From an uncultured Calditrichota bacterium (GTDB taxonomy: Bacteria; Calditrichota; Calditrichia; JAJRVZ01), in contig CAZBBC010000008.1 in NCBI GenBank assembly GCA_964489835.1, forward strand, positions 10,992 to 74,991: a stretch of DNA of 64,000 nt. Reading direction: 5' to 3'. Below are positions 2,628 through 61,884 of the stretch, one piece after another (position 1 is the first letter of the stretch; each line of letters opens with the position of its first letter). Under the pieces are notes generated by a model, which saw only the letters and a list, made by a program, of their open reading frames with translations, was not told the origin of the DNA and did no database searches. A program made the position numbers and the translations under genes.

Positions 2628-4751
2628 ATGATTTTTGTAGTGTTTTATCCCTTATATTCAGGAGCATTTATGCGTTTTTACTTTTTTGTAATTTTATTCA
2701 TGCTAAATATTTACAATGTTTATTCTTCCGATATCAATGGGCGGGTAATCTCTTCCCTGAATGGAGCTCCTTTAATTGGCGCGAATGTATATTTAGGGGA
2801 TACGAACTATGGTGCAGCTACTGATCACAGGGGAATATTTGTTATTAATGATGTACCTCCGGGTTCTTACACAATAAATGTAACGTATGTTGGATATAAA
2901 TTAAAGGAAAATGTTGAGGTAATCGTTTACAGCGGTGAAAAAGTAAATTGTACGCTGCAAATGGACGAGGATATTTACGATTTGAATGATATCGTTGTAA
3001 CCGGCACAAGGACCAGGCGGCTGATAAAGGACAGTCCTGTGGCTACTGAGGTTATTCATGCCGATGAGATAGAAAACCTTGGGGCAGAAAATGTAGGTGA
3101 AGTATTGGAAGAAAGATCCGGTATTATTATTACACAGGATGGAGCCCGCGGCGGGTTGTTGAGCGCTCAATTGCAGGGTTTGAATGATAACCATACACTG
3201 GTTTTGGTTGATGGAGCGCCGATCATTGGTAGAATTGCCGGAAAACTTGATCTATCAAGAATATCGGTTCAAAATATCGATAGAATTGAAATTGTAAAAG
3301 GAGCGGCATCCTCCCTATATGGCAGTGAAGCAGTAGGTGGTGTTATCAATATCATCACAAAAGATCCAGAAGAAACTCTTAATTATTCTGGTAATTTAAA
3401 TTTTGGAAGTTTTGAGGCCCGGAATGCAAAAACAGATTTTTCTGTTGCCAGCAATAAAACAAGTCTGCTGTTCTCTGCCGAGACACATCGTGCCGATGGG
3501 TATGACTTAGATCCGAGCACAGAAAATACAACCTCTGATGACTATAATAACTATTCGATTTTCTCTAAGATTAAATATCGATCTTCTGAAACCTATTTTC
3601 TGCAGGCTAACGGCCAGTTCTTTAATCAGCGTCAACACGGCTTTGATGGCGGAGAACGTACAACCGATACGAGAAGCTGGTATTTAAATGTTAACAATCA
3701 ATGGGATTTGAACAACCATTCTTCTTTTAAATTCAGATTGTATTACACCTCATATACAAAAGAGATAGATCGTGCCGATGTTTATGTTGACAATATTGAA
3801 TCGCTCAGCCGGGGTGAATTTATTTATAATCGCGTGCTTTTAAATCATATACTCACAGTCGGTGGTGAGGGATCATACAATTTGCTTCAATCAAACCGCC
3901 TGGAAAGCGGTGAAAAATCTGTCAATAATTATTCATTTTATTTACAGGATGAAATATTTTATCAATGGATCGAATTTAATGTGGGATTTCGTGCTGATTT
4001 TCATTCAGAATTTAACTGGAACTATGCACCTAAAGTTGGATTTTTGTTAAAACCAAATGATACATTCCGAGTCCGTGGTTCTTATAGTTACGGATTTCGT
4101 GCACCGGATTTTATTGAATTATATCTTGATCTGGATCATTCCGGCCTTACTTCCCAACCTTATGGTAATTCTAGTCTGCAGCCTGAAACTTCCAGAAGTT
4201 TAAACCTGGGATTTGAGTATCATTATTCAGCACAGACCATCCTTAAAGTAAATTTATTCTATAATCATTTAGATAATATGATAAACAGTATATTTCTGTA
4301 TCAAAATACTGATGGTATACAATATTACACCTATGAAAATCTGGCTGAAGCTGAAACACAGGGGTTTGAATTTGACGGAATTATCAAGTTCTGGAATAAT
4401 TATCGTCTGACCAGCGGCTATACCTACACAGAAACATTCGATTTAGCCAGGGATGAACCCTTTTTTAATCGTCCAAAGCATTCCGCACGTGTGAAATTTG
4501 ACTGGAGATATTCCAAACTTGGATTTTCCGGCAATCTACGCTGGCGATATATCGGTAAACGCTTGTTTGTAAATTTTCAGGGTGAACAAACGACAGCCCC
4601 CTGGTATGCCACATGGAATACGCGTCTGCGTCAGATGATATACCATCCGTTTTCAGTCTATTTTGAAGTCACCAATATATTTGATTATCAAAATCGTAAT
4701 TTTGTCGCCTTACCCGGGCGTTTAATTTTTGTAGGAATTGAACTAAACTAA
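2628..4751 (+). CDS. TonB-dependent outer-membrane receptor with N-terminal carboxypeptidase-regulatory-like domain. True start is probably the MRFYFF signal peptide at about 2670.
   Basis: CarbopepD_reg-like NGRVISSLNGAPLIGANVYLGDTNYGAATDHRGIFVINDVPPGSYTINVTYVGYK. Plug-domain motifs DSPVATEVIHADEIE, LVLVDGAPI, IDRIEIVKGAASSLYGSEAVGGVINIITK. Long beta-barrel ending in aromatic-rich strands. AAGGGAG-like RBS absent at 2628, so the start is uncertain. Confidence 0.85.
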   Translation: MIFVVFYPLYSGAFMRFYFFVILFMLNIYNVYSSDINGRVISSLNGAPLIGANVYLGDTNYGAATDHRGIFVINDVPPGSYTINVTYVGYKLKENVEVIVYSGEKVNCTLQMDEDIYDLNDIVVTGTRTRRLIKDSPVATEVIHADEIENLGAENVGEVLEERSGIIITQDGARGGLLSAQLQGLNDNHTLVLVDGAPIIGRIAGKLDLSRISVQNIDRIEIVKGAASSLYGSEAVGGVINIITKDPEETLNYSGNLNFGSFEARNAKTDFSVASNKTSLLFSAETHRADGYDLDPSTENTTSDDYNNYSIFSKIKYRSSETYFLQANGQFFNQRQHGFDGGERTTDTRSWYLNVNNQWDLNNHSSFKFRLYYTSYTKEIDRADVYVDNIESLSRGEFIYNRVLLNHILTVGGEGSYNLLQSNRLESGEKSVNNYSFYLQDEIFYQWIEFNVGFRADFHSEFNWNYAPKVGFLLKPNDTFRVRGSYSYGFRAPDFIELYLDLDHSGLTSQPYGNSSLQPETSRSLNLGFEYHYSAQTILKVNLFYNHLDNMINSIFLYQNTDGIQYYTYENLAEAETQGFEFDGIIKFWNNYRLTSGYTYTETFDLARDEPFFNRPKHSARVKFDWRYSKLGFSGNLRWRYIGKRLFVNFQGEQTTAPWYATWNTRLRQMIYHPFSVYFEVTNIFDYQNRNFVALPGRLIFVGIELN

Positions 4752-4773
4752 TAACAACATAAGGGAGTCAGTT

Positions 4774-5325
4774 ATGAGGATTTTATCATTATTATTTTTA
4801 ATTGTGCCATTATTGATTCTATTCGGTTGCAGTACGAACGAAAATGATCCGATGGGTCCCGAGGATGAGGGCAGCACCTTAAAATTAACGGTAACAGCAG
4901 CAGAAAAATATTATATCAGCCTTTCAAAGCAGTCTACTATAGAAGTTGTTGATCCATTGACAAATTCTGAATGGGATCTGTCTATCGAGAATTTAACCAC
5001 AATTAAGCTCAATGGCGGTTCCACCGCACCTGGTTCTGTTTATGCTTTTGTCGTGGATGGAATTGCCTTTGAGGATCTAAACAGTGCCCCAGAAACCACG
5101 TATCTGACCGATGATCAAAACGGGCCGTATATTGGCGATAACTGGTATTTTTATGATATTACTACACACACGGTGAATCCACTGGATACGTATTATGTCA
5201 TCCTGGCGATGGATGGACATTTTTACAAGTTCAAAATAACCGACGCAGTCTTTAGCAGTCGAACCGACGGCGAATTAACCATTAAGATTGAAAAATTAGA
5301 TGCACCAGCCAGTTATGATATCTAA
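4774..5325 (+). CDS. Lipoprotein, possibly HmuY-like heme/tetrapyrrole-binding partner of the upstream TonB-dependent receptor.
   Basis: SD AAGGGAG 8 nt upstream. Signal peptide with lipobox LILFGC. Motifs WDLSIENLTTIKLNGGS and the C-terminal YYVILAMDGHFYKFKIT resemble the HmuY family (assigned from memory, not searched). Position immediately 3-prime of the TBDR. Confidence 0.45.
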   Translation: MRILSLLFLIVPLLILFGCSTNENDPMGPEDEGSTLKLTVTAAEKYYISLSKQSTIEVVDPLTNSEWDLSIENLTTIKLNGGSTAPGSVYAFVVDGIAFEDLNSAPETTYLTDDQNGPYIGDNWYFYDITTHTVNPLDTYYVILAMDGHFYKFKITDAVFSSRTDGELTIKIEKLDAPASYDI

Positions 5326-18454: not shown

Positions 18455-18760
18455 TTTTTACTCTTCTATGTTATTTATTTACAATCCTCTAACCCCCTTT
18501 TCTGGGGCTGTTGTAAAACTAGCGAAAAAGACCAAAACTGTCATGCCTGTCCCTTCCTGTCATTCCTGCGAAGGCAGCAATCCAGAAGGGATAAACTCCA
18601 GCAGTGATCCATGTTAACAAACCACCTAAGTGTCTGTTTTTTATGGATTCCTCCCGCTCCATGAGCGGGACGGGAATGAAAGTTCGTTACGCATATTAAC
18701 AAACAAGGTCTGATTTTAAGGGGAGACTTAATGGTCGCCATATGCTATATTTAAAATTCA
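18455..18760. repeat. Composite of intergenic repeat modules (families C and E).
   Basis: ctcttctatgttatttatttacaatcctctaacccccttttct is near-identical to 41516-41560. tgtcatgcctgtcccttcctgtcattcctgcgaagg matches 17215. ttttaaggggagacttaatggtcgccatatgctatatttaaaattcatga matches 61681-61735 and, inverted, 27245-27300. Hairpin tcccgctccatgagcggga. Confidence 0.6.
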
Positions 18761-18916
18761 TGATTTATTTAGACTAACTAATAGTTTTATTATTTACTAA
18801 CTTTTTATAATCATCCATCGTATTAATATTAAAAAACAGGTCAGAAATATACCCAGCATTTTTAAAATCTACAAATTTGACGTTTAATTTTTCAATATGG
18901 TATAAGAGAATTTTCC

Positions 18917-19426: not shown

Positions 19427-21598
19427 TTATTTTTTATTATCCAAATCAGATTTTTCCCTTCGATTGTCTATATCCTTTTGTTCGCTTTCTGTTTTATCGT
19501 CAGGAGATTTTATACTTTTATCATTTTCCGGCTTTATAACTTTATTTATATTTTCTTTTTGTAACGTTGAAGATAGAGAGTCTACAGCCGGTTTTGGTGA
19601 AGACAAAGAATCCGCGGCCGCTGGTAGTGGTATATCTTCTTCGACAGGTGGTTCCTTTATCTTGTTCTTGGCAATCTTGCCAATTTCCGAACTAGGATAT
19701 TCTTTCGCTGCCAGGGTATAAGCATCAACAGCACCCTGAATATCCTGAATTTTCGTTTCATATATCCAGGCAATAACATATCTGGACTTCTGTGCGAGCA
19801 TACTGCCGGAATCCTCATTAGCTATCTGTCTGAAAATATCAATCGCTCCAAGATATTTCTCCTCCGAAATCAATTTTTCGCCTTGCAAAAAAAGATTTTT
19901 GTACGTTAATATTTCATCCTCGTCTTCGGTTGTATCCTCTTTTGGTCCAACTAAATAAGCGGCATATGGCGATTCCGGATAATCCAAGAGAATAATTTGT
20001 TTGATCGAATCAGCTTTGTCAAATAATTGCAGACCGTAATTATAAGTATAATAGAGAGAATAATACGCCTTGGGCACCAGAATCGAGTCGTTAGATGATT
20101 TGATGAATTTCTGATATGCTACTGCTGCACTGTCGTAATTAACAAGAGTGAGCAGGAAGAATTCAGCCATGGAAAACATGTTTTTCTTAAGAGATTTTTC
20201 TATATCAGCGGCAAATCTAATCACCGGCTTTTTAGCCGGCTTTGCTGTTTCTTTTCCTTTTATTTTTGTTTCATTTACAGCTTTCTCAAATTCAGATCTA
20301 TCAAATTCAACCGCATTAATTTCAGCTGTATCAATTTCAGCCGCATTAATTTCAGCTGCATTAAGTTCAGCTGCATTAATTTCAGCCGCATTAATTTCAG
20401 CTGCATTAATTTCAGCCGCATTAAGTTCAGCTGTATCAATTTCAGCGTATTCCAGCCCCAATGAATCAAAAGCGAGACTATCGGTATTAATTTTTTCCAA
20501 ATCGGCTAAATCACGTTCAATATTCGTCCTGATCTTCCGATACTTGTCTAAAATGCCCGCTCTTTTATCCGCCTCTTCTTTGAATTCTGTATCTCTGTAT
20601 TCCTTTCCGACCTTTTGATATAATTTTTTTGCAGAATCAATATTCACATAATAAAATTCCATTAACTTTGCCATCCCGTAAGCAGCAATAGCAGATCCTT
20701 CTGTTCGGGGATAGGTTTCCATTACTTCATTATAAACATCGGTCGCCTCGGGAATCTGATCTTTGATGACATAGATATCTCCAATCCGTGCATTGATCAG
20801 GGCTTTTTTATCTAAAAATTTACCTATTTGGGCAATTTCTTCGAGAATTGTTATTGCCCGGTCCTGTTCATCCAGTTCAATCAGGCAATCCACCTTTCTC
20901 ATGTTCGCGTCATAAAGTATTTCAACCGATGTATCAAATTCATTGACACCATCATATCTGGTCAGAGCCTCCGAATAATTCTGTTCATTATAATAGGTTT
21001 CTGCAATAAGGAATTGTGCTTTGGCTTCCAATTCCTCATTACTGGAATTCTCAATGATCTTATCAAATTGAACACGTGCATTTTTGTAGTCTTCATTTTT
21101 ATAATATATTCGTCCCAAATTATGATAGGCCTCAGCAGTCAAATCATCATCATCATCAGAAGAAATCACTCTGTTCAGGTATTCCAGCGCTTCATCATCC
21201 CGATCCATTTCTATCAATGCCATCGCTAACAATAAGTAAGCTTCAGTGATCCACTCACTATTTTTATATTTTGCATTAAACTGTAATAAATATCTTTCTG
21301 CTTTCGGGTACTCTTTAACCTGATAATAGCTCTTTCCAATCAGGAGCAACGCTTCATCCGCATAGCTACTACTATCACTGTAGATATTTATCAGCTTCCA
21401 GCATTTATCAATGGTTTTGTAAAAATCGTTGCGTATATCCGATGTGATTTCGCCATCCCGACTACTTTTTATTTTTTTAACACCTTCCTCATACTTTTCC
21501 TGGGCATTGAAAAGCGTATTATAGTAGGCACATCCAACGATCATCACCAAAGGCATTAAAAATAAATAAATTGTTTTTCGCATTCTCATCATGATCAA
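19427..21598 (-). CDS. TPR-repeat lipoprotein with an internal (N/D)(A/T)AE(I/L) pentapeptide tandem-repeat tract and a Lys/Asp/Pro-rich low-complexity C-terminus.
   Basis: Lipobox MIVGC. Multiple TPR-like helices (AEAYHNLGRIYYKNEDYKNA etc.). Central tract AEIDTAELNAAEINAAEINAAEINAAELNAAEINAAEIDTAEINAVEF. C-terminal PKPAVDSLSS...KSDLDNKK. Confidence 0.7.
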   Translation of the reverse strand: MIMMRMRKTIYLFLMPLVMIVGCAYYNTLFNAQEKYEEGVKKIKSSRDGEITSDIRNDFYKTIDKCWKLINIYSDSSSYADEALLLIGKSYYQVKEYPKAERYLLQFNAKYKNSEWITEAYLLLAMALIEMDRDDEALEYLNRVISSDDDDDLTAEAYHNLGRIYYKNEDYKNARVQFDKIIENSSNEELEAKAQFLIAETYYNEQNYSEALTRYDGVNEFDTSVEILYDANMRKVDCLIELDEQDRAITILEEIAQIGKFLDKKALINARIGDIYVIKDQIPEATDVYNEVMETYPRTEGSAIAAYGMAKLMEFYYVNIDSAKKLYQKVGKEYRDTEFKEEADKRAGILDKYRKIRTNIERDLADLEKINTDSLAFDSLGLEYAEIDTAELNAAEINAAEINAAEINAAELNAAEINAAEIDTAEINAVEFDRSEFEKAVNETKIKGKETAKPAKKPVIRFAADIEKSLKKNMFSMAEFFLLTLVNYDSAAVAYQKFIKSSNDSILVPKAYYSLYYTYNYGLQLFDKADSIKQIILLDYPESPYAAYLVGPKEDTTEDEDEILTYKNLFLQGEKLISEEKYLGAIDIFRQIANEDSGSMLAQKSRYVIAWIYETKIQDIQGAVDAYTLAAKEYPSSEIGKIAKNKIKEPPVEEDIPLPAAADSLSSPKPAVDSLSSTLQKENINKVIKPENDKSIKSPDDKTESEQKDIDNRREKSDLDNKK
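20296..20458. repeat. About 10-11 copies of a 15-bp tandem repeat (consensus TTCAGCYGCATTAAK) inside the TPR-lipoprotein gene.
   Basis: Read directly: ttcagccgcattaatttcagctgcattaagttcagctgcattaatttcagccgcattaatttcagctgcattaatttcagccgcattaag... The repeat is in frame and encodes the AEINA pentapeptide. Confidence 0.9.
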
Positions 21599-24730: not shown

Positions 24731-25098
24731 CCTGTCTCCTATTTAAATTAATATTTTTACGTTTTAATTCCTGAATACTACACCGGGCATGGCACGCCGT
24801 GCCCCTCGTTGAGGGAAATCCCAAATCACAAGCACCAAATCCCAAATAATTCCCAATAACCAATCCCCCGATAAGAGATGTCGTCCTCAGACGACTTACC
24901 GGACCTAAATCATGCATGATATAGCAAATTCCTATTCTGAAATCCTGGATGATTTCATCCCGATCATGCCAGTAGGTGGATTCGCCCGCTGTGAATTTGT
25001 TGCCCGGAGGGAATCGTTATCATCGGGGCTAGTTCCCAGTTCCGAGTTCCAAGTTCCAAATATTTGTTTTTTTACTTCCCACTTCCTACTTTAACTGA

Positions 25099-25174
25099 GG
25101 TACCCCAGGAGAGATTCGAACTCCCGACACATGGCTTAGGAAGCCACTGCTCTATCCTGCTGAGCTACTGGGGC
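25099..25174 (-). tRNA. tRNA-Arg (anticodon CCT).
   Basis: Reverse complement reads GCCCCAGTAGCTCAGCAGGATAGAGCAGTGGCTTCCTAAGCCATGTGTCGGGAGTTCGAATCTCTCCTGGGGTACC. 7-bp acceptor stem, D-arm GCTC/GAGC, anticodon loop TTCCTAA, T-arm GGGAG-TTCGAAT-CTCTC. CC of the CCA is encoded. Confidence 0.8.
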
Positions 25175-25242
25175 GAAAAAACAATTTTAAATTATAAATT
25201 GTAAATTTTCAATCACCACTGATCGAAGCCTGTCCCAATGTG

Positions 25243-25283
25243 ACCAAAAACTTTAATTTTGCTATCACTCTGAGGATCCCGAC
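25243..25283 (-). other. Degenerate tRNA-like fragment (5-prime acceptor/D-arm start plus T-arm-like hairpin) upstream of tRNA-Arg.
   Basis: Reverse complement GCCCCGGTAGCTCATCCCTGACTTTGTCGGGATCCTCAG begins like the tRNA-Arg 5-prime end (GCCCCAGTAGCTCAGC) and shares TGTCGGGA with its T-arm, but lacks the anticodon arm and 3-prime acceptor strand. Confidence 0.3.
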
Positions 25284-25613
25284 AAAGTCAGGGATGAGCT
25301 ACCGGGGCAAAAATTAACAATTATTAATTTATTAAAAATAAACTCTTAAGGCAAGGAATGAGAAGGGCTAATATCATATGAAGGAAAGAAATAAAACGGA
25401 GACCGGAGGCCGGATACCGGTAACCGGAAAACTTTCAATGCTATGCCCGGTTCAGGCGGATTCGCACGCCAATTGGCGCATTTTCAACCTACTGGCGAAT
25501 TTCATTTGTCATTGTGGCTTGGGAATTGTGATTTTATTATATCCTGCCCGGCTATTAATAGTTTGCTCGAAACAAAGATGGGTATTTTGTTATGTTATGG
25601 CAGATAATAAGAA

Positions 25614-25739
25614 TTAAGCAGGATCGTAACCTCTTCTTCTGTACTCGGTATCGTTCCGATGAGCTTTTCTCCTCTCACCAATCTTTAACTTACCTCGGAC
25701 TACCTTAGCGAAAGTACGTTTTATTGTTTGGCTAAGCAT
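25614..25739 (-). CDS. Possible small (41-aa) highly basic protein. Hypothetical.
   Basis: Internal ATG of track ORF 25614..25841, preceded by AGGAAAAAATATG. Product MLSQTIKRTFAKVVRGKLKIGERRKAHRNDTEYRRRGYDPA is very Lys/Arg-rich, with no family recognised. Confidence 0.2.
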   Translation of the reverse strand: MLSQTIKRTFAKVVRGKLKIGERRKAHRNDTEYRRRGYDPA

Positions 25740-25928
25740 ATTTTTTCCTTTATGATTAGTGACTGATAGTGACAGAGTGAATAAATTCTTATATGTGTAG
25801 ATAATTCCCCATAAGCTAATTGTGATAAGTACAAATGGCAAGGGATTTTAAAAATCATTTCGATGTTTGATTTAATAAATAAAAATTTATTTTTTCTTTG
25901 CAGTTAGCCGGCGCTGCGAGACAACATT

Positions 25929-27020: not shown

Positions 27021-27239
27021 AATATTTTATCTTTATAATAAATTTTTACTATTCCTGATTTTCGATGGTTCAATTACAATGTGAATCTTATAAGATAAAC
27101 AGCAATTTAACTTTTATTCAAATTTAAATAAATAGAAGTACCGTAAAAAATTACAGGGATTTCCTATTCCAGGTAATAGACGCGATAAAAAGAAAAGTGC
27201 TATTAATTATTTTACTAAAGTCATTGAATTAATAAATCA

Positions 27240-27400
27240 GTTAACCTGGTTAATTCATGAATTTTAAATTCATCAAGTAGCGACAGTAAAATCTCCCCTT
27301 AAAAAAGGGATTAAGGGATTGTAAAATTTCGATTATCCTATAACCTTTTTTGATAGACAACCCCCCGCCCCCTTTTCTAAGGGGGAGTTAAATAATTGAT
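27240..27400. repeat. Intergenic repeat modules of family C (inverted orientation) with a poly-C/poly-G hairpin.
   Basis: ttaattcatgaattttaaattcatcaagtagcgacagtaaaatctccccttaaaa is the reverse complement of the 18700-18740 / 61681-61735 module. ccccccgcccccttttctaagggggag matches 41540-41570. Confidence 0.6.
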
Positions 27401-32757: not shown

Positions 32758-33124
32758 TTTTTTACTCCAATAAATTATACTATGTAATTCTAATTATTTT
32801 AAACTTAAAGTCTTATCTCTTTTTTTCTGTATTATTACCACAAAAAACTTGATTATTTAAGCACCCTTTCGATGTCATTCAGTCCGCCGGGAGACGGATC
32901 CGCTTACTGGCCTGAAAGGAATCTTTCAAATTGTTGGCTAAATCCAACAAGAAAAAAGATCCTTACAGGATGACAAAATTAATTATTTTTTGTCTGCAGT
33001 TTTATGCTATTATAGCCAAAAACTTCGTTATTTTTTAAAAAATTTTTTTATTTTAGCAAAATTTTTGCTACTTGGATTATTCATTTCTCGCAGCGGCGCA
33101 GAGACACGACTATTTATAAATAAT

Positions 33125-33240
33125 TATTTTAGTTTTAATCCGTGTTAATTCGTGTCAGTCTTCGCCTGATCCGGCGTAGACGGATAATCCGTGGACAAAT
33201 TCTTTTTTTGATTGCAGCCAACGGCTGCGGTATGAATAAT
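33125..33240. repeat. Family A miniature intergenic repeat element (forward orientation).
   Basis: ttttaatccgtgttaattcgtgtcagtcttcgcctgatccggcgtagacggataatccgtggacaaattctttttttgattgcagccaacggctgcggtatgaata is near-identical to 61762-61868, and inverted to 54508-54615. Confidence 0.85.
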
Positions 33241-33245
33241 TAAGT

Positions 33246-33779
33246 TTAATTATAACAAATCAATGATAATATATCGTATTCGTTTATCAACTCCCGGCCT
33301 TTCAGAAAGCCCAATTCGATCAGGAATAAAATCGCTTCAACTTTCGCCCCTGATCTTTCGATCAAATGACAGGATGCCCGGGCAGTACCGCCGGTTGCCA
33401 GCAGATCATCAACGAGAAGCACTCTTGCACCGTGTTCGATGGCATCGGCGTGGATCTCGACGCTGTCCGTCCCATACTCCAGTGAATATTCTTCACGGAG
33501 AATTTTAGCCGGGAGTTTACCGGGTTTTCTGACAGGAACAAAACTTTTATTCAATTTATAAGCCAAAGCAGATCCAAAAATAAATCCTCTTGATTCAATT
33601 GCCGCGACGATATCAAACGATCTGTTTTTTATCAAATCATGTAACTGATCGATTGATTGAGCGAACAGATCAGCATCCTTTAAAAGCGTTGTGATATCTT
33701 TAAAGATGATACCCTTCTTGGGAAAATCCGGCACATCACGGATGGATGCTTTTAGTCTTACTATTTTATCTTCGTTCAT
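33246..33779 (-). CDS. apt: Adenine phosphoribosyltransferase.
   Basis: PDFPKKGIIFKDIT and PRPP-binding VLLVDDLLATGGTARA. Confidence 0.9.
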   Translation of the reverse strand: MNEDKIVRLKASIRDVPDFPKKGIIFKDITTLLKDADLFAQSIDQLHDLIKNRSFDIVAAIESRGFIFGSALAYKLNKSFVPVRKPGKLPAKILREEYSLEYGTDSVEIHADAIEHGARVLLVDDLLATGGTARASCHLIERSGAKVEAILFLIELGFLKGRELINEYDILSLICYN

Positions 33780-33791
33780 ATTTTGTGTTTT

Positions 33792-34067
33792 TTAATACTC
33801 GACAGAAAATTTTTGATATTTAGCTGTATATGGTTCAAAAGTGAAATCAATATTATCAACCAAAGAAAAACCCGGACCCTGTTCCAATATTGTCTTATAG
33901 TGTTCTATCACTTCTTTTTCGCCTTCAATACGCACTTCAACACTTCCGTCCGCAAGATTTTTAACATATCCCTTCAAACCATAGTCATTGGCGTGGCGCA
34001 TGGCGAAATAGCGAAAACCAACACCCTGAACTCTCCCCACAACCCGGATATGCGCACCTGTCATCAT
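33792..34067 (-). CDS. acyP: Acylphosphatase.
   Basis: VVGRVQGVGFRYF and GYVKNLADGSVEV, the acylphosphatase signatures. 91 aa. Confidence 0.85.
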   Translation of the reverse strand: MMTGAHIRVVGRVQGVGFRYFAMRHANDYGLKGYVKNLADGSVEVRIEGEKEVIEHYKTILEQGPGFSLVDNIDFTFEPYTAKYQKFSVEY

Positions 34068-34528
34068 CGCTTTTGCAGAAATCCGGATATTTTTGTCACT
34101 GCCTCCTGTGGCGTTGACACAGAAAATATTCTATCAGAAACATCCCAGGTATTCAATCCCACGACCGGTTTCTGCAATTGCAGCGCAAATGCTAATTCGG
34201 ATAGTGTACCAAAACCACCATTTACGGCAATTACGCCGGCGGCGGAGCGAATAATGATCAGATTTCTGCTAATCCCCAGACCGGTTGGTATCACGGTATC
34301 CACATAAGGATTGGCATCCTGCGGATCGTCACCGGGCAGAATACCAATCGTTCGACCACCATAATTTTTTGCTCCTTTGCAGGTCGCTTCCATGACACCG
34401 CCCAGGCCACCACAAATCACTATAAAACCGTTTTTTGCCAGCAGGGTCCCCAATTCTTCGCATAGCCGGTACATCTCTTTATCACAGTCTCTGGCGCCAA
34501 TAACGGCAATTGTTTTACTATAGCTCAA
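34064..34528 (-). CDS. LOG-family / TIGR00725 Rossmann-fold nucleotide-binding protein.
   Basis: ICGGLGGVMEA ... NGGFGTLSE matches the LOG (PGGxGTxxE) pattern. 154 aa. Confidence 0.7.
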   Translation of the reverse strand: MSYSKTIAVIGARDCDKEMYRLCEELGTLLAKNGFIVICGGLGGVMEATCKGAKNYGGRTIGILPGDDPQDANPYVDTVIPTGLGISRNLIIIRSAAGVIAVNGGFGTLSELAFALQLQKPVVGLNTWDVSDRIFSVSTPQEAVTKISGFLQKR

Positions 34529-34534
34529 TTTTAT

Positions 34535-34612
34535 ACTTCGTTTCTTTGTTCACGTGCTTCGTGGATTATTTTTTTTGTTTGCAGCATCGCTGCTGTATGA
34601 ATAGAACAGGTT
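34535..34612. repeat. Partial family A repeat (hairpin GCAGCATCGCTGC module plus CGTG dyad).
   Basis: ttcacgtgcttcgtggattattttttttgtttgcagcatcgctgctgtatgaataga matches the right end of the 61801-61870 and 33181-33240 copies. Confidence 0.7.
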
Positions 34613-34620
34613 ACTCTGCA

Positions 34621-35928: not shown

Positions 35929-36267
35929 AACCCTATGTTATAATATTTATCCGGAAACCTTGCAATTTATATATAACTCTATAATCATTCAACCTTATAT
36001 CAGAAAAAGTAAGCGGTAAAATATAAGTGACTAGAGTTAAAAGTGAACAAAAGTGACTAAAGTGTGTCATTCACCTCTCGCGGAGACGCTGAGACGCAAG
36101 GATTTGAATTTAAAGGATTTATGTCAGAACACCTTAACTATTTATTATATTGCTTTCCCGACATGTCGGGACTCGCAATGACGCTTCCATGATTGTCATT
36201 TCGAGGAGTGAAGAATAAACGACCATGAAATCTTTTGTATTTTTTCTTTTGTATTTTGTATTATTTC

Positions 36268-41454: not shown

Positions 41455-41700
41455 TTTATCAGAATTGCATGATCTGTCTCCCCCTTGATAAAGGGGGACT
41501 AAGGGGGATATATACTCTTCTATGTTATTTATTTACAACCTCCTAACCCCCTTTTCTAAGGGGGAATAGATTTTACTTAATCGATGTTTCAAATGAACTT
41601 TTTCTAAAAAATAACCTAAACTCCAATAGCCCAATAAATGGGATTAGTCCCCCTTTTCAAAGGAGGAGACAGAGCTTTCATACATCAAAAGCTGCACGAA
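41455..41700. repeat. Family C repeat cluster (poly-C/poly-G hairpin modules).
   Basis: tctcccccttgataaagggggactaagggggat (matches 61585-61620), ctcttctatgttatttatttacaacctcctaacccccttttctaagggggaat (matches 18461-18510), and gattagtcccccttttcaaaggaggagaca. Confidence 0.7.
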
Positions 41701-48593: not shown

Positions 48594-49244
48594 TTATTTT
48601 AATAGTAGAGCCAGATTGACCACATCATCGGCCTGGGTGGGAAGTTGCGTTTGTTCACCTTCATCGGTTTCTAAATAGGTATTTAACTGATGGGTCCAGT
48701 TAACCAGGAGACCAAATTCAGGTAATCCGACAAAATCCAACTGCCTCTGGATGGAGACTTCTATACCATTGACAAAACCTGTGCCCAAATTTTGCATCTG
48801 TGTTACCTGATCCACCTTGAAACCATTAAATTCCCTGTCAGCTGGGGCAAAAGAAATTTCCTGTTGTACATTCGAAAGCGTCTTATTGAAATAGCCGACA
48901 GACATATGGGCGGCCAGACTGGGCGCATAATGTTCCAGGATGATGTCAAAATTTGTGGCTCGTGTTGGATCCAAATCAGAATTACCGGTCATAGTCAGTC
49001 AGATTATAAAATGAATAATAAGCCTTTAGGTTGAATTTGTAACCTAAAGATGGTTTGTATAAGATGGCGTATTGACGCCACCTTTAAATTCTTCGGTTTC
49101 AGTTGGTGCATCACGATAGTATCGACGACCTACATCGATCGGATTTCCATTGATATCGACATAGGACTCTTCTAGTTCATCATCTTCCCAATTCCAGTCA
49201 TTTCGCTTATCTCTTTCCGAGAATGACGATAACAACACCGTCAT
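48594..49244 (-). pseudogene. Fragments of a TonB-dependent-receptor-like beta-barrel (two short ORFs, probably a decayed gene).
   Basis: 48594..48992 translates to alternating beta-strand sequence (GFKVDQVTQMQNLGTGFVNGIEVSIQRQL...GLLVNWTH) without plug or N-terminus. 49044..49244 is a second short fragment. No signal peptide. Confidence 0.35.
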
Positions 49245-49411
49245 TGCGAATAACGAAAAATGAGTAGCCTGCTCGCCTACCCTGTAAAACGGGGTCTACG
49301 ACGCGGCGGGACGAAACAATCTCTTGTAGTTATTGGTGTTATGTCAATTTTTACGGATTAAATGTTAGGGGTACTCCAGTTAATATATTAAGTACCCATT
49401 TCAAACAAAAT

Positions 49412-50620: not shown

Positions 50621-51010
50621 TTTATAAACCACAGAGGACACGAAGGAAGCAAATAACAATATTTAAACCATTCAATCATTTTAATAATCATTTTCTGATT
50701 ATGTCCTTAACTCCACAAAAATCCTATAGATTGCTTTCCGCCTCAGCGGATCAGCCGAGGCTGACGCTAACGTTCGCAATGACGATAATGAGTTGGTCAG
50801 TGCGAATCTCGAATAGTGAATATTTGGCCTGTCATCTGGGAAGGACCTTCTTATGTGATCGTATCATACCGACACTTTAAAAGATCCCTACGGGATGACA
50901 GGAATGCTTTCACATGTGGCGTTTCACGTCTGACGTTTGACGTCTCACTATAAATTTAATTATTCAATATTCTTTCTTTTCTTCGTGAACTTCGTGCACT
51001 TCGTGGTTGC
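50621..51010. repeat. About 390-bp composite MITE-like element with terminal inverted repeats.
   Basis: Left end tttataaaccacagaggacacgaaggaagc. Right end cttcgtgaacttcgtgcacttcgtggttgc (inverted). The interior carries family E modules (gtcatctgggaagg ... gggatgacaggaatg) and gtttcacgtctgacgtttgacgtctcac. Confidence 0.65.
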
Positions 51011-53294: not shown

Positions 53295-53375
53295 AGATCC
53301 ACGGATTATCCGTCGCAGCCGGATCCCGTCATAGCCACGTCTGCGCCGCGCCTGCCGCGTCGTAGACCCTTTTTG
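53295..53375. repeat. Partial family A repeat plus GC-rich word.
   Basis: gatccacggattatccgtcgcagccggatcc, and cgtctgcgccgcgcctgccgcgtcgtagaccc (matches 22751 and inverted 49290-49315). Confidence 0.65.
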
Positions 53376-53408
53376 ACACTACCTCGGATTAAAATAACTT
53401 ACAAAGAC

Positions 53409-54452: not shown

Positions 54453-54507
54453 TTATTCCTCCAGAATTAAACTTTTAAAATATCTATATGCATAATTAGC
54501 CTAACCT

Positions 54508-54700
54508 ATTCATACCGCAGCATATTGCTGCAATCAAAGAAAAAAATAGTCCACGGATTATCCGTCTACGCCGGATCAGGCGAAGACTGACACGAATTAG
54601 CACGGATTAAAACTAAAATAATATTAATTTTTATTTAAAATCTGTGTCAATCCGTGAAATCTGTGGATAAAAAACGCTGCGCCGCTTTGAGAGACGAATT
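54508..54700. repeat. Family A repeat element (inverted orientation) plus adjacent CGTG-dyad module.
   Basis: 54508-54615 is the reverse complement of 33131-33236 (cataccgcagcatattgctgcaatcaaag...gtccacggattatccgtctacgccggatcaggcgaagactgacacgaattagcacggattaaaac), followed by tctgtgtcaatccgtgaaatctgtggat. Confidence 0.85.
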
Positions 54701-54719
54701 GACCGAATTTGTAAATTAT

Positions 54720-57677: not shown

Positions 57678-58643
57678 TTATGGATTAGGCTTCGACGTAT
57701 TATCCACATTTTCTTTAGTGACTAAATCGATGCCAACCGGGATTTCTTCCGGTATACTTTTTCCCTGTATTAGTTGAATCGCATTATTCATGGCAATTTT
57801 TCCCATGATATATGAGTGTTGGGCAATTGACCCTTGCATTTTTCCCTCCCGGATAGCATCTCGTGCATCCTTCAGGGCATCAAATCCAACAACGATGATC
57901 TCCCCGGTTTTTCCGGCAGCGGAAATAGCTTCAACAGCACCGAGGGCCATCAGATCACTACAGGCGAAAAGAGCCTGAACTCCTGGATATGACTGCATCA
58001 TATTTTGAAAAACATTAAATCCCTGATCTCTCTCCCAGTTGGCCGTCTGTGAGGTTAAAATTTGAATCTCCGGTTGTGAATCGAGGGCTTTACGAAATCC
58101 ACGTATTCTTGCATCACCGGTTTCGTGTCCCGGAATACCTTCCAAAATAGCCACGTTTCCCTTTCCATTGAGCAGACTCTTTATATATTCACCGGCAATC
58201 CGACCACCCTCATAATTATCAGATCCGATAAAAGTGGCAATTTGACCGCCGGATTCCGCTAATGCCACAGAATCTACACGGGTATCAATAATAATAACCG
58301 GTATATTTGCCCGGTTTGCTTTCAAAATAGCCGGTATAATTTCCTTTGAGCCACTCGGCGTTACACAAAGTACATCCACACGGGTCTGAATCAGATTCTC
58401 AACGATTTGCATTTGTTTTTCAACATCAACTTCCCGTTCAGCCGCCTGAAGGATCAGGTTGATGCCCAATTCTTTTGCCTGATATTCAGCGCCACTCTGC
58501 ATATCGATAAAATAAGGATTATTAAGCGTCTTCATGACCAGGGCTACGGTTGGTCCGCTTAGTACTGATTTTTCTCCTCTCTGGCAGGCTATGATTGAAA
58601 ATACGAAAAGTATTAGCACAAACAGACATTTGATGTGTTTCAT
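57678..58643 (-). CDS. Sugar ABC transporter periplasmic substrate-binding lipoprotein (RbsB-like). Start at MKHIKCLFVL; the track ORF extends to 58796.
   Basis: Signal/lipobox FSIIAC. TVALVMKTLNNPYFIDMQSGAEYQAKELGINL matches periplasmic-binding-protein type I (ribose/xylose family). Confidence 0.8.
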   Translation of the reverse strand: MKHIKCLFVLILFVFSIIACQRGEKSVLSGPTVALVMKTLNNPYFIDMQSGAEYQAKELGINLILQAAEREVDVEKQMQIVENLIQTRVDVLCVTPSGSKEIIPAILKANRANIPVIIIDTRVDSVALAESGGQIATFIGSDNYEGGRIAGEYIKSLLNGKGNVAILEGIPGHETGDARIRGFRKALDSQPEIQILTSQTANWERDQGFNVFQNMMQSYPGVQALFACSDLMALGAVEAISAAGKTGEIIVVGFDALKDARDAIREGKMQGSIAQHSYIMGKIAMNNAIQLIQGKSIPEEIPVGIDLVTKENVDNTSKPNP

Positions 58644-58764
58644 CGCTTTTAAACTCCATAGTTGATTATTATTTTGACAGGATAAGAGGAATACTCTCTT
58701 GCTGCCGATATTTCGGGAAAATCTTACAGATACATATGTAATAAACCGAAAATATTCATCTTGC

Positions 58765-58890
58765 AGAGACACGGAGACGCAGCGTTTTTTGTCCACGGAT
58801 TATCCGGCTTCGACGAAAAATCTGTTAATCAATTCGTGAAATTCGTGGATATATTTCTCTGCGGCTTTGCGGCTCTGCGAGAGATAGTAT
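58765..58890. repeat. Partial family A repeat (inverted) with CGTG dyad.
   Basis: cacggagacgcagcgttttttgtccacggattatccggcttcgacgaaaaatctgttaatcaattcgtgaaattcgtggat. The first part also resembles 36075 (cggagacgctgagacgc). Confidence 0.7.
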
Positions 58891-59920: not shown

Positions 59921-61414
59921 TTAAGCCGCTCCTAACGCACTATGAAGAATTTTTTCCTGCGACGCCTCAGCAGAGAGATACTCATCAACAATTTTCCCTT
60001 CATGCATCACAAGGATTCGGTCACTCATTCCCAGAATCTCAGGCAAATCCGACGAAATCATCAGTATAGCGGCACCTTCAGCCGTCAAAGTGTTCATCAG
60101 CTGATAGATTTCCACCTTGGAACCGACATCAATCCCGCGGGTCGGTTCATCAAAAATGAGTATATCCGCCTTTGAGCAGAGCCATTTACTCATCACCACT
60201 TTTTGTTGATTACCACCACTTAAATACATTACTTTTTGATCCGGACCGGGTGTTTTGATCCTTAACTCGTTAATATATTTTTTTGCGGCTTCACGCTCTT
60301 TTTTACTTTCAACAATACCAAATCGGGAGAATCTTTCGACACTGGGTAAACAAACATTTTCCTTTAAAGAAAGGTTCAGCACAAGCCCTTGCTTCTTTCG
60401 ATCCTCTGTCAGATAACCGATCTTTAAATTAATCGCCTTACGGGGAGAAGTAATTTTCTGTGCTTTACCCTCCACATATATTTTACCAGAGTCGATTCTG
60501 TCAGCACCAAATATGGCACGGGCTAATTCCGTTCGGCCGGAACCAAGAAGACCGGCAATCCCTAATATCTCACCCTTATACAGGCAAAAACTAATATTTT
60601 TTAATCTTTTATGGGTACAAATATCTTCAACATGAAGGATTTCTTCACCTCTGGTAACGGCTTGTCGCGGATACTGTTCCTTTAACTCCCTGTTGACCAT
60701 CATCCGGATCAATTCCGCTTCAGTGACTTCAGAAATCAGATGGGTTGAAACATAATGTCCGTCGCGCAGTACCGTTACCCTGTCCCCGATTTCGAACAAC
60801 TCTTCCAGGCGATGGGAGATATAAATAATTGAAACACCTTTTTCTTTGAGTCGCCGGATAGTGGTGAAAAGTTCTTTAATTTCATTTTCACTCAGGGCAG
60901 AGGTTGGTTCATCCATGATCAATATATTGGCATTGAGAGACAGGGCCTTGGCCACTTCAACCATCTGTTGCTGGGCAATACCCAGCGTGTTGATGGTACT
61001 TTTTGGATCGATCTTGATACCAAGATCATCCAATATTTTCATGGCCTCAGTATTCATTTTCTTCTCATTAATAATCCCTGTCAACCAGTAAAACTCACGA
61101 CCAAGAAAAATATTCTCTGATACCGTCAGGTGAGGGATCAGATTAAACTCCTGATATATAATCCCTATACCTAATTGCTGGGCATGTCTGGGACTTTTTA
61201 CCTCTATTTTTTCACCATGCAGGGATATTTCACCGCTTGTTTTTTGATAGGCTCCGCTTAAAATTTTAACCAGTGTTGATTTTCCGGCACCGTTCTCACC
61301 AAGCAGGATATGTACCTCACCCCTTGTTAAATCAAAATTTACATTATCAAGGGCTACCACTCCGGGAAATGTTTTCCGGATATGGCGCATTTTTAGAACA
61401 TTTTCACTTTTCAT
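59921..61414 (-). CDS. Sugar ABC transporter ATP-binding protein (duplicated NBD, RbsA-like).
   Basis: Two Walker A motifs (GENGAGKST; second degenerate), LSGGNQQKV signature, two Walker B. 497 aa. Confidence 0.9.
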   Translation of the reverse strand: MKSENVLKMRHIRKTFPGVVALDNVNFDLTRGEVHILLGENGAGKSTLVKILSGAYQKTSGEISLHGEKIEVKSPRHAQQLGIGIIYQEFNLIPHLTVSENIFLGREFYWLTGIINEKKMNTEAMKILDDLGIKIDPKSTINTLGIAQQQMVEVAKALSLNANILIMDEPTSALSENEIKELFTTIRRLKEKGVSIIYISHRLEELFEIGDRVTVLRDGHYVSTHLISEVTEAELIRMMVNRELKEQYPRQAVTRGEEILHVEDICTHKRLKNISFCLYKGEILGIAGLLGSGRTELARAIFGADRIDSGKIYVEGKAQKITSPRKAINLKIGYLTEDRKKQGLVLNLSLKENVCLPSVERFSRFGIVESKKEREAAKKYINELRIKTPGPDQKVMYLSGGNQQKVVMSKWLCSKADILIFDEPTRGIDVGSKVEIYQLMNTLTAEGAAILMISSDLPEILGMSDRILVMHEGKIVDEYLSAEASQEKILHSALGAA

Positions 61415-61480
61415 TCGATAAAATTTGTGAGATTATATGTTATTCTAACCAAAAACTTTGTTATTTCCGCCCCAGCGATT

Positions 61481-61870
61481 AGCAAAAATTTTAAAAACTT
61501 TTATCCACGGATTTCACGGATTTTATTTAGCCTGAATTATTCATAAAATTAAATATTTAAGTCTATAAATAACCTAAAATCAATGAGTTAATTCCCCCTT
61601 AATAAAGGGGGTTAGGGGGATGTTTTAAACGTAATATTTTAAATTATATCAATGTTTTACAACCCCTTAGTCCCCTTTTTTTTAAGGGAAGACTTAATTG
61701 TCGCTATATGATAGATCTAAAATTCATGAATTAATCAGGTTAGAAATAATATTTATTTTAATTTTAATCCGTGCAAATCAGTGTCAGCCAATCACTTGAT
61801 CCGGCTTCGACGGATAATCCGTGGACAAAATCTTTTTTTTATCGCAGCATCGCTGCGTTATGTATTTATC
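61481..61870. repeat. Mosaic of all three repeat families in one spacer.
   Basis: ttatccacggatttcacggatt (CGTG dyad). aattcccccttaataaagggggttagggggat (family C). ttttaagggaagacttaattgtcgctatatgatagatctaaaattcatgaatta (family C module). 61762-61868 is a full family A copy (ttttaatccgtgcaaatcagtgtcagcc...cgacggataatccgtggacaaaatcttttttttatcgcagcatcgctgcgttatg). Confidence 0.85.
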
Positions 61871-61884
61871 AGGGTAATCCGGGG

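Follow-up and report, generated by a model that had tools for sequence, protein, structure and literature searches.

What is the unit of about 110 bp that lies downstream of apt, at positions 33,125 to 33,240 of the 64,000-nucleotide stretch of Calditrichota DNA analysed here (the window), and does it serve its neighbouring genes or only itself? The initial annotation of this stretch had listed six sites of such a unit, named Family A, and had proposed that each copy could double as an intrinsic transcription terminator. Using positions 33119-33253 as a BLASTN query, we recovered matches within the window at 54492-54622 on the minus strand (89.3% over 131 nt) and at 61748-61878 on the plus strand (79.7% over 133 nt), together with short matches at 34570-34603, 53298-53325 and 58788-58815; a repeat search of the window found the same pairs of copies. 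The core GTCCACGGATTATCCG, allowing up to 3 mismatches, occurs 9 times in the window against 0.43 expected, a count reached by none of 100 shuffles, and the window holds four exact cores. All six listed sites contain the element, in full at 33.1 kb (+), 54.5 kb (-) and 61.8 kb (+) and in part at the other three, and its description as a dispersed repeat family located at gene boundaries is correct. The copies are indeed highly similar, but the range of 85-90% identity that had been given does not hold, since the full copies measure 80-89% by BLASTN. Nor is there a fixed unit of ~110 bp: Family A is modular, and copy 1 reaches left of 33125, to ~33069.

The 58.8-kb copy sits at a gene boundary only with a shifted gene start. 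The mechanical ORF at 57678-58796 (minus strand) starts at GTG 58796 and enters the repeat, while its orthologues are 320-321 aa long. To judge from that length, the true start of this binding protein is likely to be ATG 58643 (MKHIKCLF..), which would make the upstream gap 328 nt and the copy intergenic. Family A is a genuine repeat: modular, non-coding and found in many intergenic insertions of either orientation.

Copies outside the window, on which the initial annotation had staked its claim, exist on 23 other contigs of the sample Ga0315553, in five other metagenome assemblies and in an uncultured Calditrichota MAG. These came from an exact scan with a 17-mer core (GACGGATAATCCGTGGA) of one genome per GTDB species, plus metagenomes and viral contigs. 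The GTDB-species genomes yielded 36 matches, 34 of which were single chance matches in unrelated taxa; the remaining two lie in the one Calditrichota MAG and match the left 80 nt of Family A at 82-87%. Among 92 metagenome stretches, BLAST confirmed the element on 23 distinct Ga0315553 contigs, none overlapping the window, and in the five further assemblies; most 17-mer matches outside Ga0315553 were due to chance, with one gut bacterium supplying ~20. All 4 matches on viral contigs were chance agreements with the 17-mer alone, and BLASTN of the element against plasmid and phage sequences gave no match. Ga0315553 also includes a contig 100% identical to window positions 33012-34217, and apt with its downstream element was found on contigs of JGI samples 3300031585 and 3300031652 that are 99.9-100% identical to the window. 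Counting the 23 contigs and the four window cores, the exact core is present at no fewer than 27 separate loci (≥27) of the window's population. Several metagenome contigs terminate within the element, as expected because a repeat breaks assemblies.

Alignment of all copies, in the plus orientation of copy 1, resolved the element into module X, an AT spacer, module L, a central hairpin, module C and an end module (Table 1; loci and contigs outside the window carry L numbers). Module X reads TAACCTGGATAATTCATTTCTCGCAGCGGCGCAGCG; module L is TTTTAATCCGTGnnAATynGTGTCAG, with two 8-mers 10 bp apart; the central hairpin is GTCTkCGCC-TGATCC-GGC..GAC; and module C is GACGGATAATCCGTGGAy, which contains the core palindrome ACGGAT-A-ATCCGT and is followed by an A/T run. 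The end module is either R (TTGATT-GCAGC-loop-GCTGC-GGTATGAATAGGTCAGGTTA) or the promoter-like alternative P (AAATAACAAAGTTTTTGGCTAyAATAGCATAA), which can replace R after C. In the window and the loci together we counted 43 C, 27 L, 24 R, 14 P and 10 X modules; R is also found alone (window 34548-34613). Module X resembles an inverted R tail, with ATTCAT-N2-4-CGCAGC in common: aligned to the reverse complement of R, X scored 12 in copy 1 (shuffle maximum 8) and 5-9 in five other copies (maximum 9-12). The whole element spans 110-250 nt, with no ORF within it.

Table 1. Positions of Family A copies and related modules in the window, and lengths of the gaps in the conserved operon.
Feature	Position	Strand	Remark
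Copy 1, left end module X (TACTTGGATTATTCATTTCTCGCAGCGGCGCAGAGACACGAC), inverted relative of right end module	33069-33110	+	Common to L042, L068, L069, L091 and L112
Copy 1, module L: two AATYCGTG boxes 10 bp apart, then TCAG	33133-33158	+	(Nearly) invariant in 15 aligned copies
Copy 1, central hairpin GTCTTCGCC-TGATCC-GGCGTAGAC	33158-33181	+	Missing at orthologous L137 site
Copy 1, core GACGGATAATCCGTGGAC: ACGGAT-A-ATCCGT palindrome and last CGTG box	33179-33196	+	
Copy 1, T-run, R hairpin and tail	33197-33249	+	
Copy 1, R hairpin GCAGCC-AAC-GGCTGC	33214-33228	+	
Copy 1, tail GGTATGAAT..	33229-33249	+	Final TTA is the apt stop codon (33246-33248)
Module P (AACGAAGTTTTTGGCTATAATAGCATAA), adjoining X end of copy 1	33002-33029	-	Directed away from copy 1, towards CsgG/TPR gene
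Solo end module	34548-34613	+	Without L-C core; CGTG unit 34548-34566, T-run, R hairpin 34581-34593, tail TGTATGAATAGAACAGGTTA 34594-34613
Partial copy	53297-53394	-	Without R; degenerate L 53374-53394, expanded GC-rich hairpin 53315-53369, core 53297-53314
Copy 2 with partner arm	54496-54715	-	One fold-back filling the FAD-oxidase to ADH gap
Copy 2, left parts: X-like; inverted CGTG unit; AT spacer	54675-54715 (X-like); 54639-54668 (CGTG unit)	-	
Copy 2, arm: L; hairpin; core	54587-54612; 54564-54587; 54549-54566	-	
Copy 2, end: R hairpin; tail	54517-54531; 54496-54516	-	
Partial copy inside fold-back	58746-58883	-	X-like (CGCAGAGC)n 58851-58883; CACGAATT unit 58827-58850
Same partial copy, rest: half hairpin and core; inverted X-like tail	58791-58816; 58746-58790	-	
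Simple relative: AATCCGTGaAATCCGTGGAT (61503-61522) and AAAAGTTTTT	61436-61522	-	Directly upstream of P
Module P at 61.5 kb	61436-61462	-	Followed by ABC ATPase start at 61414
Copy 3	61762-61880	+	L 61762-61787, core 61809-61826, R hairpin 61843-61857, tail 61858-61880
Gap, TIM-barrel to ABC			Window 470 nt; L133 129 nt; L134 genes overlap (ATGA); L132 52 nt
Gap, permease to binding protein			Window 175 nt (328 nt with corrected start); L133 462 nt; L134 310 nt; L132 13 nt
Gap, binding protein to FAD oxidase			Window 105 nt; L133 105 nt; L134 312 nt; L132 39 nt; L131 105 nt
Gap, FAD oxidase to ADH			Window 267 nt; L133 169 nt; L132 35 nt; L131 260 nt
Gap, ADH to MFS			Window 157 nt; L133 30 nt, empty; L132 34 nt; L131 520 nt

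Simpler relatives that lack the hairpin consist of two or three AATYCGTG boxes leading into GTGGAy and an A/T run; 19 of them were found in 164 kb, all intergenic. At the apt site, a 93%-identical relative (L137) has one of these simple units, a triple, in the place of the window's L, hairpin and C, indicating that Family A is a simple unit plus an inserted hairpin module of ~31 nt, and that the ACGGAT-A-ATCCGT core results from this insertion. In many copies the central hairpin grows by tandem 9-11-mers, (GCCTGCCCG)n(GCGCAGACGkG)m, as in L058, L068, L073, L076, L079, L101, L117 and the 53.3-kb copy of the window; L076 and L117 are one locus in two samples, and their tandem units differ. Back-to-back arms around an AT-rich spacer occur in copy 2, L076, L112, L117 and L137, and the gap at 54485-54719 folds in its entirety as one fold-back (z = -2.7). 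By alignment and predicted folding, the Family A unit is one arm of a mosaic element able to fold back on itself.

The strongest evidence that Family A copies represent lineage-specific insertions with fast turnover is synteny. Contigs of relatives share the gene order creatininase, TIM-barrel, ABC ATPase, permease, binding protein, FAD oxidase, ADH and MFS; we compared L133 (94% aa identity), L134 (89%), L132 (~70-79%, Calditrichia_2) and L131 (95%, and ~90% identical to the window in DNA), with genes on short contigs taken from crude ORF calls. The operon gaps total 1174 nt in the window against 173 nt in a relative, and the gap comparison reveals that, for every Family A copy in the operon, the site is empty or otherwise filled in a relative. 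Between the FAD oxidase and ADH genes, L131 has the same end modules with a different palindromic repeat (GCAATGACG..CGTCATTGC) between them, exactly at the site of window copy 2. Between ADH and MFS, the window and L131 have only outer L-like and CCGTGGATC ends in common.

At the junction of the TIM-barrel and ABC genes, the ancestral overlap, ATGACTCCGGATAAC|GTTCTAAA in L134, is broken in both the window and L133. The left side retains CCGGATTAC, and the right side reads ATGAAAAG(C/T)GA(C/A)AA(C/T)GTTCTAA. Comparing filled with empty sites, the ancestral CCGGATAAC corresponds to CCGGATTAC at the left flank and, at the right flank, to GCGACAAC or GTGAAAAT, an imperfect pair that could be a much diverged target duplication of 8-9 nt; the flanks at the ADH to MFS site (TTGTAAGTT vs CTGTAAATT) also form an imperfect pair. 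The ABC protein begins MTPDNVL in L134 (1984-2010) and MKS(D/E)NVL in the window (61385-61414) and L133; its first residues are new, the start codon and the next two differing from L134, because repeats interrupt the junction.

Relatives also carry an unrelated MITE (CATGAGTGTCCGGTT..), at 5702-6015 in L134, at 4566-5029 and 1994-2124 in L133 and after position 687 in L138; no member of this family was found in the window. The L134 copy is flanked by a perfect 9-bp target duplication, ATGACAGGT, as seen against the window, L131 and L133, where the site is empty. This demonstrates that comparison of filled and empty sites is able to detect target duplications, and that small elements do transpose in this group.

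Starting from the observed multi-copy status, modularity, turnover, independence of orientation and insertion into gaps, including those inside a conserved operon, we consider it probable that Family A is one arm type of a set of non-coding, mosaic, partly palindromic intergenic repeats that spread as selfish DNA in an uncultured Calditrichia lineage. On this reading the building block, in which AATYCGTG boxes, two or three in number, follow each other at 10 bp and close in GTGGA(C/T) and an A/T run, has been entered by the ~31-nt hairpin module to yield the core, and the hairpin can lengthen by slippage of the tandem 9-11-mers. The unit is capped by the GCAGC hairpin with TATGAAT..CAGGTTA, by its inverted relative X or by P, and two back-to-back arms with an AT-rich spacer produce a fold-back of ~200-250 nt. 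For the mechanism of spread and the effects on transcription we infer the following. Spread might proceed through mobilisation in trans by an enzyme encoded elsewhere, or through copying between sites by recombination or template switching. Any effects on transcription would be a by-product, with hairpins placed in 3' untranslated regions and new promoters such as P splitting an operon.

A repeat of this sort is an ordinary kind of bacterial 'junk' and mechanistically unsurprising; Family A is apparently undescribed so far, although of a familiar kind. BOX elements of Streptococcus pneumoniae are non-coding, intergenic and built as boxA-boxB(n)-boxC, with a 45-nt boxB. They resemble Family A in this modular A-B-C plan, in the variable number of an internal module (here the central hairpin) and in folding into a long hairpin; they differ in that their sequence is unrelated, the tandem units of Family A are microsatellite-like 9-11-mers rather than 45-nt boxes, and its ends R, X and P are interchangeable.

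Bacterial MITEs, among them the Correia (NEMIS) elements of Neisseria (reviewed in PMC5896051, PMC9330008), are likewise non-autonomous inserts of ~100-250 nt with inverted ends that lie beside genes in either orientation, carry hairpins and outward promoter-like sequences, and are polymorphic for presence or absence in close relatives. Family A shares with MITEs that it is small, non-coding, multi-copy and present or absent at orthologous sites. The inverted ends of Correia elements are clean and 26 bp long, with a duplicated TA, whereas those of Family A are short and imperfect; from its termini (..CAGGTTA/TAACCTG..), a TA target would be possible. A clean model of terminal inverted repeats with target-site duplication did not emerge: the flank pairs are imperfect, and inverted ends are clear in copy 1 and marginal in five other copies.

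In Caldithrix abyssi, of the same phylum, an 18-nt palindrome, aAACCGTTgaAACGGTTt, occurs in 38 exact, intergenic copies that avoid the regions upstream of genes; it is not part of a larger repeat, and its authors liken it to REP sequences (PMC5317091). It was the sole repeat that we found reported for the phylum in the literature (PMC5317091). Its intergenic location and its layout of an 8-mer, 2 nt and an 8-mer recall Family A, which differs in sequence and is a mosaic of 110-250 nt instead of a true palindrome.

Could the elements do more than spread? Module P is a conserved sequence of 28-32 nt with a TAYAAT box, common to the window and a different Calditrichota MAG. Besides its two window sites it occurs in L023, L040, L042, L070, L073, L106, L112, L118, L124 and L128. 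It adjoins the C end or the X end, facing outward, is directed at a gene start in 9 of 10 scorable cases and is sometimes split from an upstream TTGCTA by a variable insert; from these features, P looks like a portable promoter. The elements might be self-spreading operon splitters, fold-backs that enter gene junctions with a portable P and rewire transcription across the lineage, with the CGTG boxes providing shared control. Insertion even between overlapping, translationally coupled genes, and the new ABC start at the TIM-barrel/ABC junction, would belong to the same account, which we regard as unlikely in this full form.

A second possibility is a REP- or REPIN-type element moved by a RAYT, an IS200/IS605-like tyrosine transposase acting on single-stranded hairpins. 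BIMEs (bacterial interspersed mosaic elements), which in Enterobacteria consist of REP/PU units, and the REPINs of Pseudomonas (PMC2817692, PMC3116915, PMC3733652) are, like Family A, extragenic, multi-copy and often within operons; they combine a short unit in alternating orientation with other motifs, form fold-back doublets around a spacer, and vary in content between strains or species. Family A is itself extragenic and partly palindromic, occurs in BIME-like mosaics with other motifs and in alternating orientation, and its back-to-back inverted units with a spacer (copy 2 and the four L loci above) are REPIN-like doublets. GTAG appears in copy-1-type hairpins, and GACG (CGTC on the other strand) lies beside the core in most copies. 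However, GTAG is not conserved, most copies having TTCGAC, and the stem beside CGTC is 3-4 bp long, compared with the 8-9 bp and A-T first pairs that define the families of CGTC-tagged REPs reported from Chlorobi and Bacteroidetes (PMC3733652). There is no sequence relation to BIMEs or REPINs, and no tagged palindromic unit of 20-40 nt was found: the CGTG units are direct repeats, (AATYCGTG)2-3 phased at 10 bp, and not true palindromes. No transposase or RAYT was detected among the 50 window ORFs scanned. Overall, a RAYT-driven REP system appears distinctly improbable.

The 10-bp phasing of the CGTG boxes, one helical turn, raises the further option of a cis-regulatory cassette, in which the boxes would bind an abundant response regulator or nucleoid protein and act on the adjoining P or R. 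A unit stands directly upstream of P in the same orientation at seven or more loci (≥7: L023, L045, L073, L106, L118, L128 and window 61.5 kb), and the orientation of P towards gene starts fits such a role. The distance from the R end to a gene boundary is always 2-116 nt (11 starts, 8 ends); among start-facing R modules, 10 of 11 are 11-83 nt upstream of start codons and the eleventh is at 558 nt, and the TTGATT..TATGAAT pair in R resembles -35/-10 boxes. Against this, the units and L-C copies show no preference for gene starts over gene ends, the two R hexamers stand 15 to 17 nt apart depending on loop length, strains ~90% identical in DNA differ by gain and loss of sites, and no candidate binding protein emerged; a dedicated cassette of this kind seems to us quite doubtful. 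Two candidate signals within R were tried and rejected: a sigma-70 promoter (TTGATT-N15-17-TATGAA) has variable spacing and a poor -10 box, and half of the copies face gene ends; a 5-codon mini-ORF in the R tail (ATG AAT AGG TCA GGT TAA) is not conserved in frame across copies.

The proposal that every copy doubles as an intrinsic terminator did not survive. It had rested on a stem-loop followed by a T-run, an arrangement that applies, in a loose sense only, to the small ACGGAT/ATCCGT hairpin, which the T-run follows at 5-9 nt, and fails for the GCAGC hairpin, which the T-run precedes. The T-run sits between the core and the GCAGC hairpin, so that on the plus strand it comes before that hairpin and on the minus strand an A-run comes after it. 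A dedicated Rho-independent terminator, possibly bidirectional, whose hairpins and T-run halt transcription of the upstream gene, would agree with the location of copies after stop codons, with the plus-strand T-run of 7-9 nt after the core, with the CGTG units, whose hairpins have G-U pairs on the T-run strand only and lead into AAAAGTTTTT, and with the terminator-like sites flagged at 61521-61503, 34548-34566 and 54565-54553. Orientation speaks against it. Of 35 core copies scored relative to flanking ORFs, 8 are sense and 6-7 antisense, with 5 between divergent and 3 between convergent flanks, and orientation relative to genes is about random for C, L, R and simple units alike; 31 of the 35 fall outside all ORFs ≥80 aa long. 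The T-run of copies 1 and 3 is antisense to both neighbours, and copy 2 is inverted relative to these two, yet every flanking gene is on the minus strand. The strongest stems stop 9-17 nt short of the T-run, and stems other than the GCAGC hairpin end 5-17 nt before it, with only weak 5-6-bp matches flagged. In a consensus scan for terminators the only hits were a stem of 5 bp in copy 2 and the hairpin of copy 3, whose T-rich tail is weak, and terminator-like sites showed no excess over shuffles in two of three regions scanned (7 vs 2.4 expected in the third). Finally, the operon of relatives has the same genes without any such element. We therefore reject a dedicated terminator role for Family A, and put the chance that this reading is nonetheless right as very slight.

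That the element works as a structured RNA, be it a small RNA or a cis-acting one of the riboswitch or leader type, is scarcely credible, since, although some folds are more stable than shuffles (z to -4.1), Rfam searches, run both with gathering thresholds and with E relaxed to 5, returned only the tRNA-Arg and noise and no Family A match, RNAalifold on 15 copies gave -10 kcal/mol with 0 compensatory pairs, and the copies stand in both orientations beside unrelated genes. In single-sequence folding, z-scores were weak overall and the -4.1 was reached on the strand complementary to the T-run. In the R hairpin, pair six alternates between C-G and A-T, with 5 double-change cells against 1.9 expected (0 of 500 shuffles), a significance inflated by related sequences. 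This switching, the position of R near gene boundaries and the one-strand G-U pairs hint at selection rather than pure junk.

The window contains further repeats and anomalies. A second family, with the palindrome GCAATGACG..CGTCATTGCGA, is found at 36177-36221, 49222-49266 and 50778-50822, and at 3560-3700 in L131, where it occupies the FAD-oxidase to ADH gap. A third family (TTTTAAGGGGAGACTTAATGGTCGC..AAAATTCATGAATTAATCAGGTTAG), 73-85% identical between copies, lies at 18714-18791, 27227-27304 and 61680-61757, one copy abutting copy 3. CCCCCTT..AAGGGGG palindromes occur in long intergenic regions (18493-18507, 27368-27385, 41480-41497, 41547-41564 and 61594-61611), and similar motifs are present inside a MITE of L133 and L134. 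A hairpin-like sequence, TGTCATCCyGTArGGATCTTTT ... GAATGACA, lies in the 5' regions of two genes (32958-32974 and 50883-50899, both minus strand) and also occurs near 4900 (~4900) in L133. The 1.2-kb gap at 24731-25928 holds tRNA-Arg(CCT) at 25099-25174 (minus strand) and low-complexity tandem repeats of GGAACTTGGAACTCGGAACTGGGAACT and TTGGGATTTGG. Within coding sequence, ten tandem 15-nt units (TTTCAGCyGCATTAA-like; 20260-20469, minus strand) encode a five-residue repeat in ORF 19427-21598, a 723-aa TPR protein, and one protein of the window has a T9SS sorting domain. That domain, together with syntenic contigs named Calditrichia_1 and Calditrichia_2, assigns the organism to Calditrichia. 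A 132-aa ORF at 48594-48992 (minus strand) aligns with just the C-terminal portion of a TonB-dependent receptor barrel, and the upstream stretch 48993-49411 has a palindrome of the second family; truncation or disruption of this gene is possible.

Calditrichota abound in marine sediment and have received very little study. Family A and its sister families enlarge the intergenic DNA of one lineage and break metagenome assemblies, and in annotation the hairpins of Family A should not be labelled terminators. Because their content differs between strains ~90% identical in DNA, the repeats could serve as strain markers, and they provide a natural series for the study of how compact operons are split and promoters donated.
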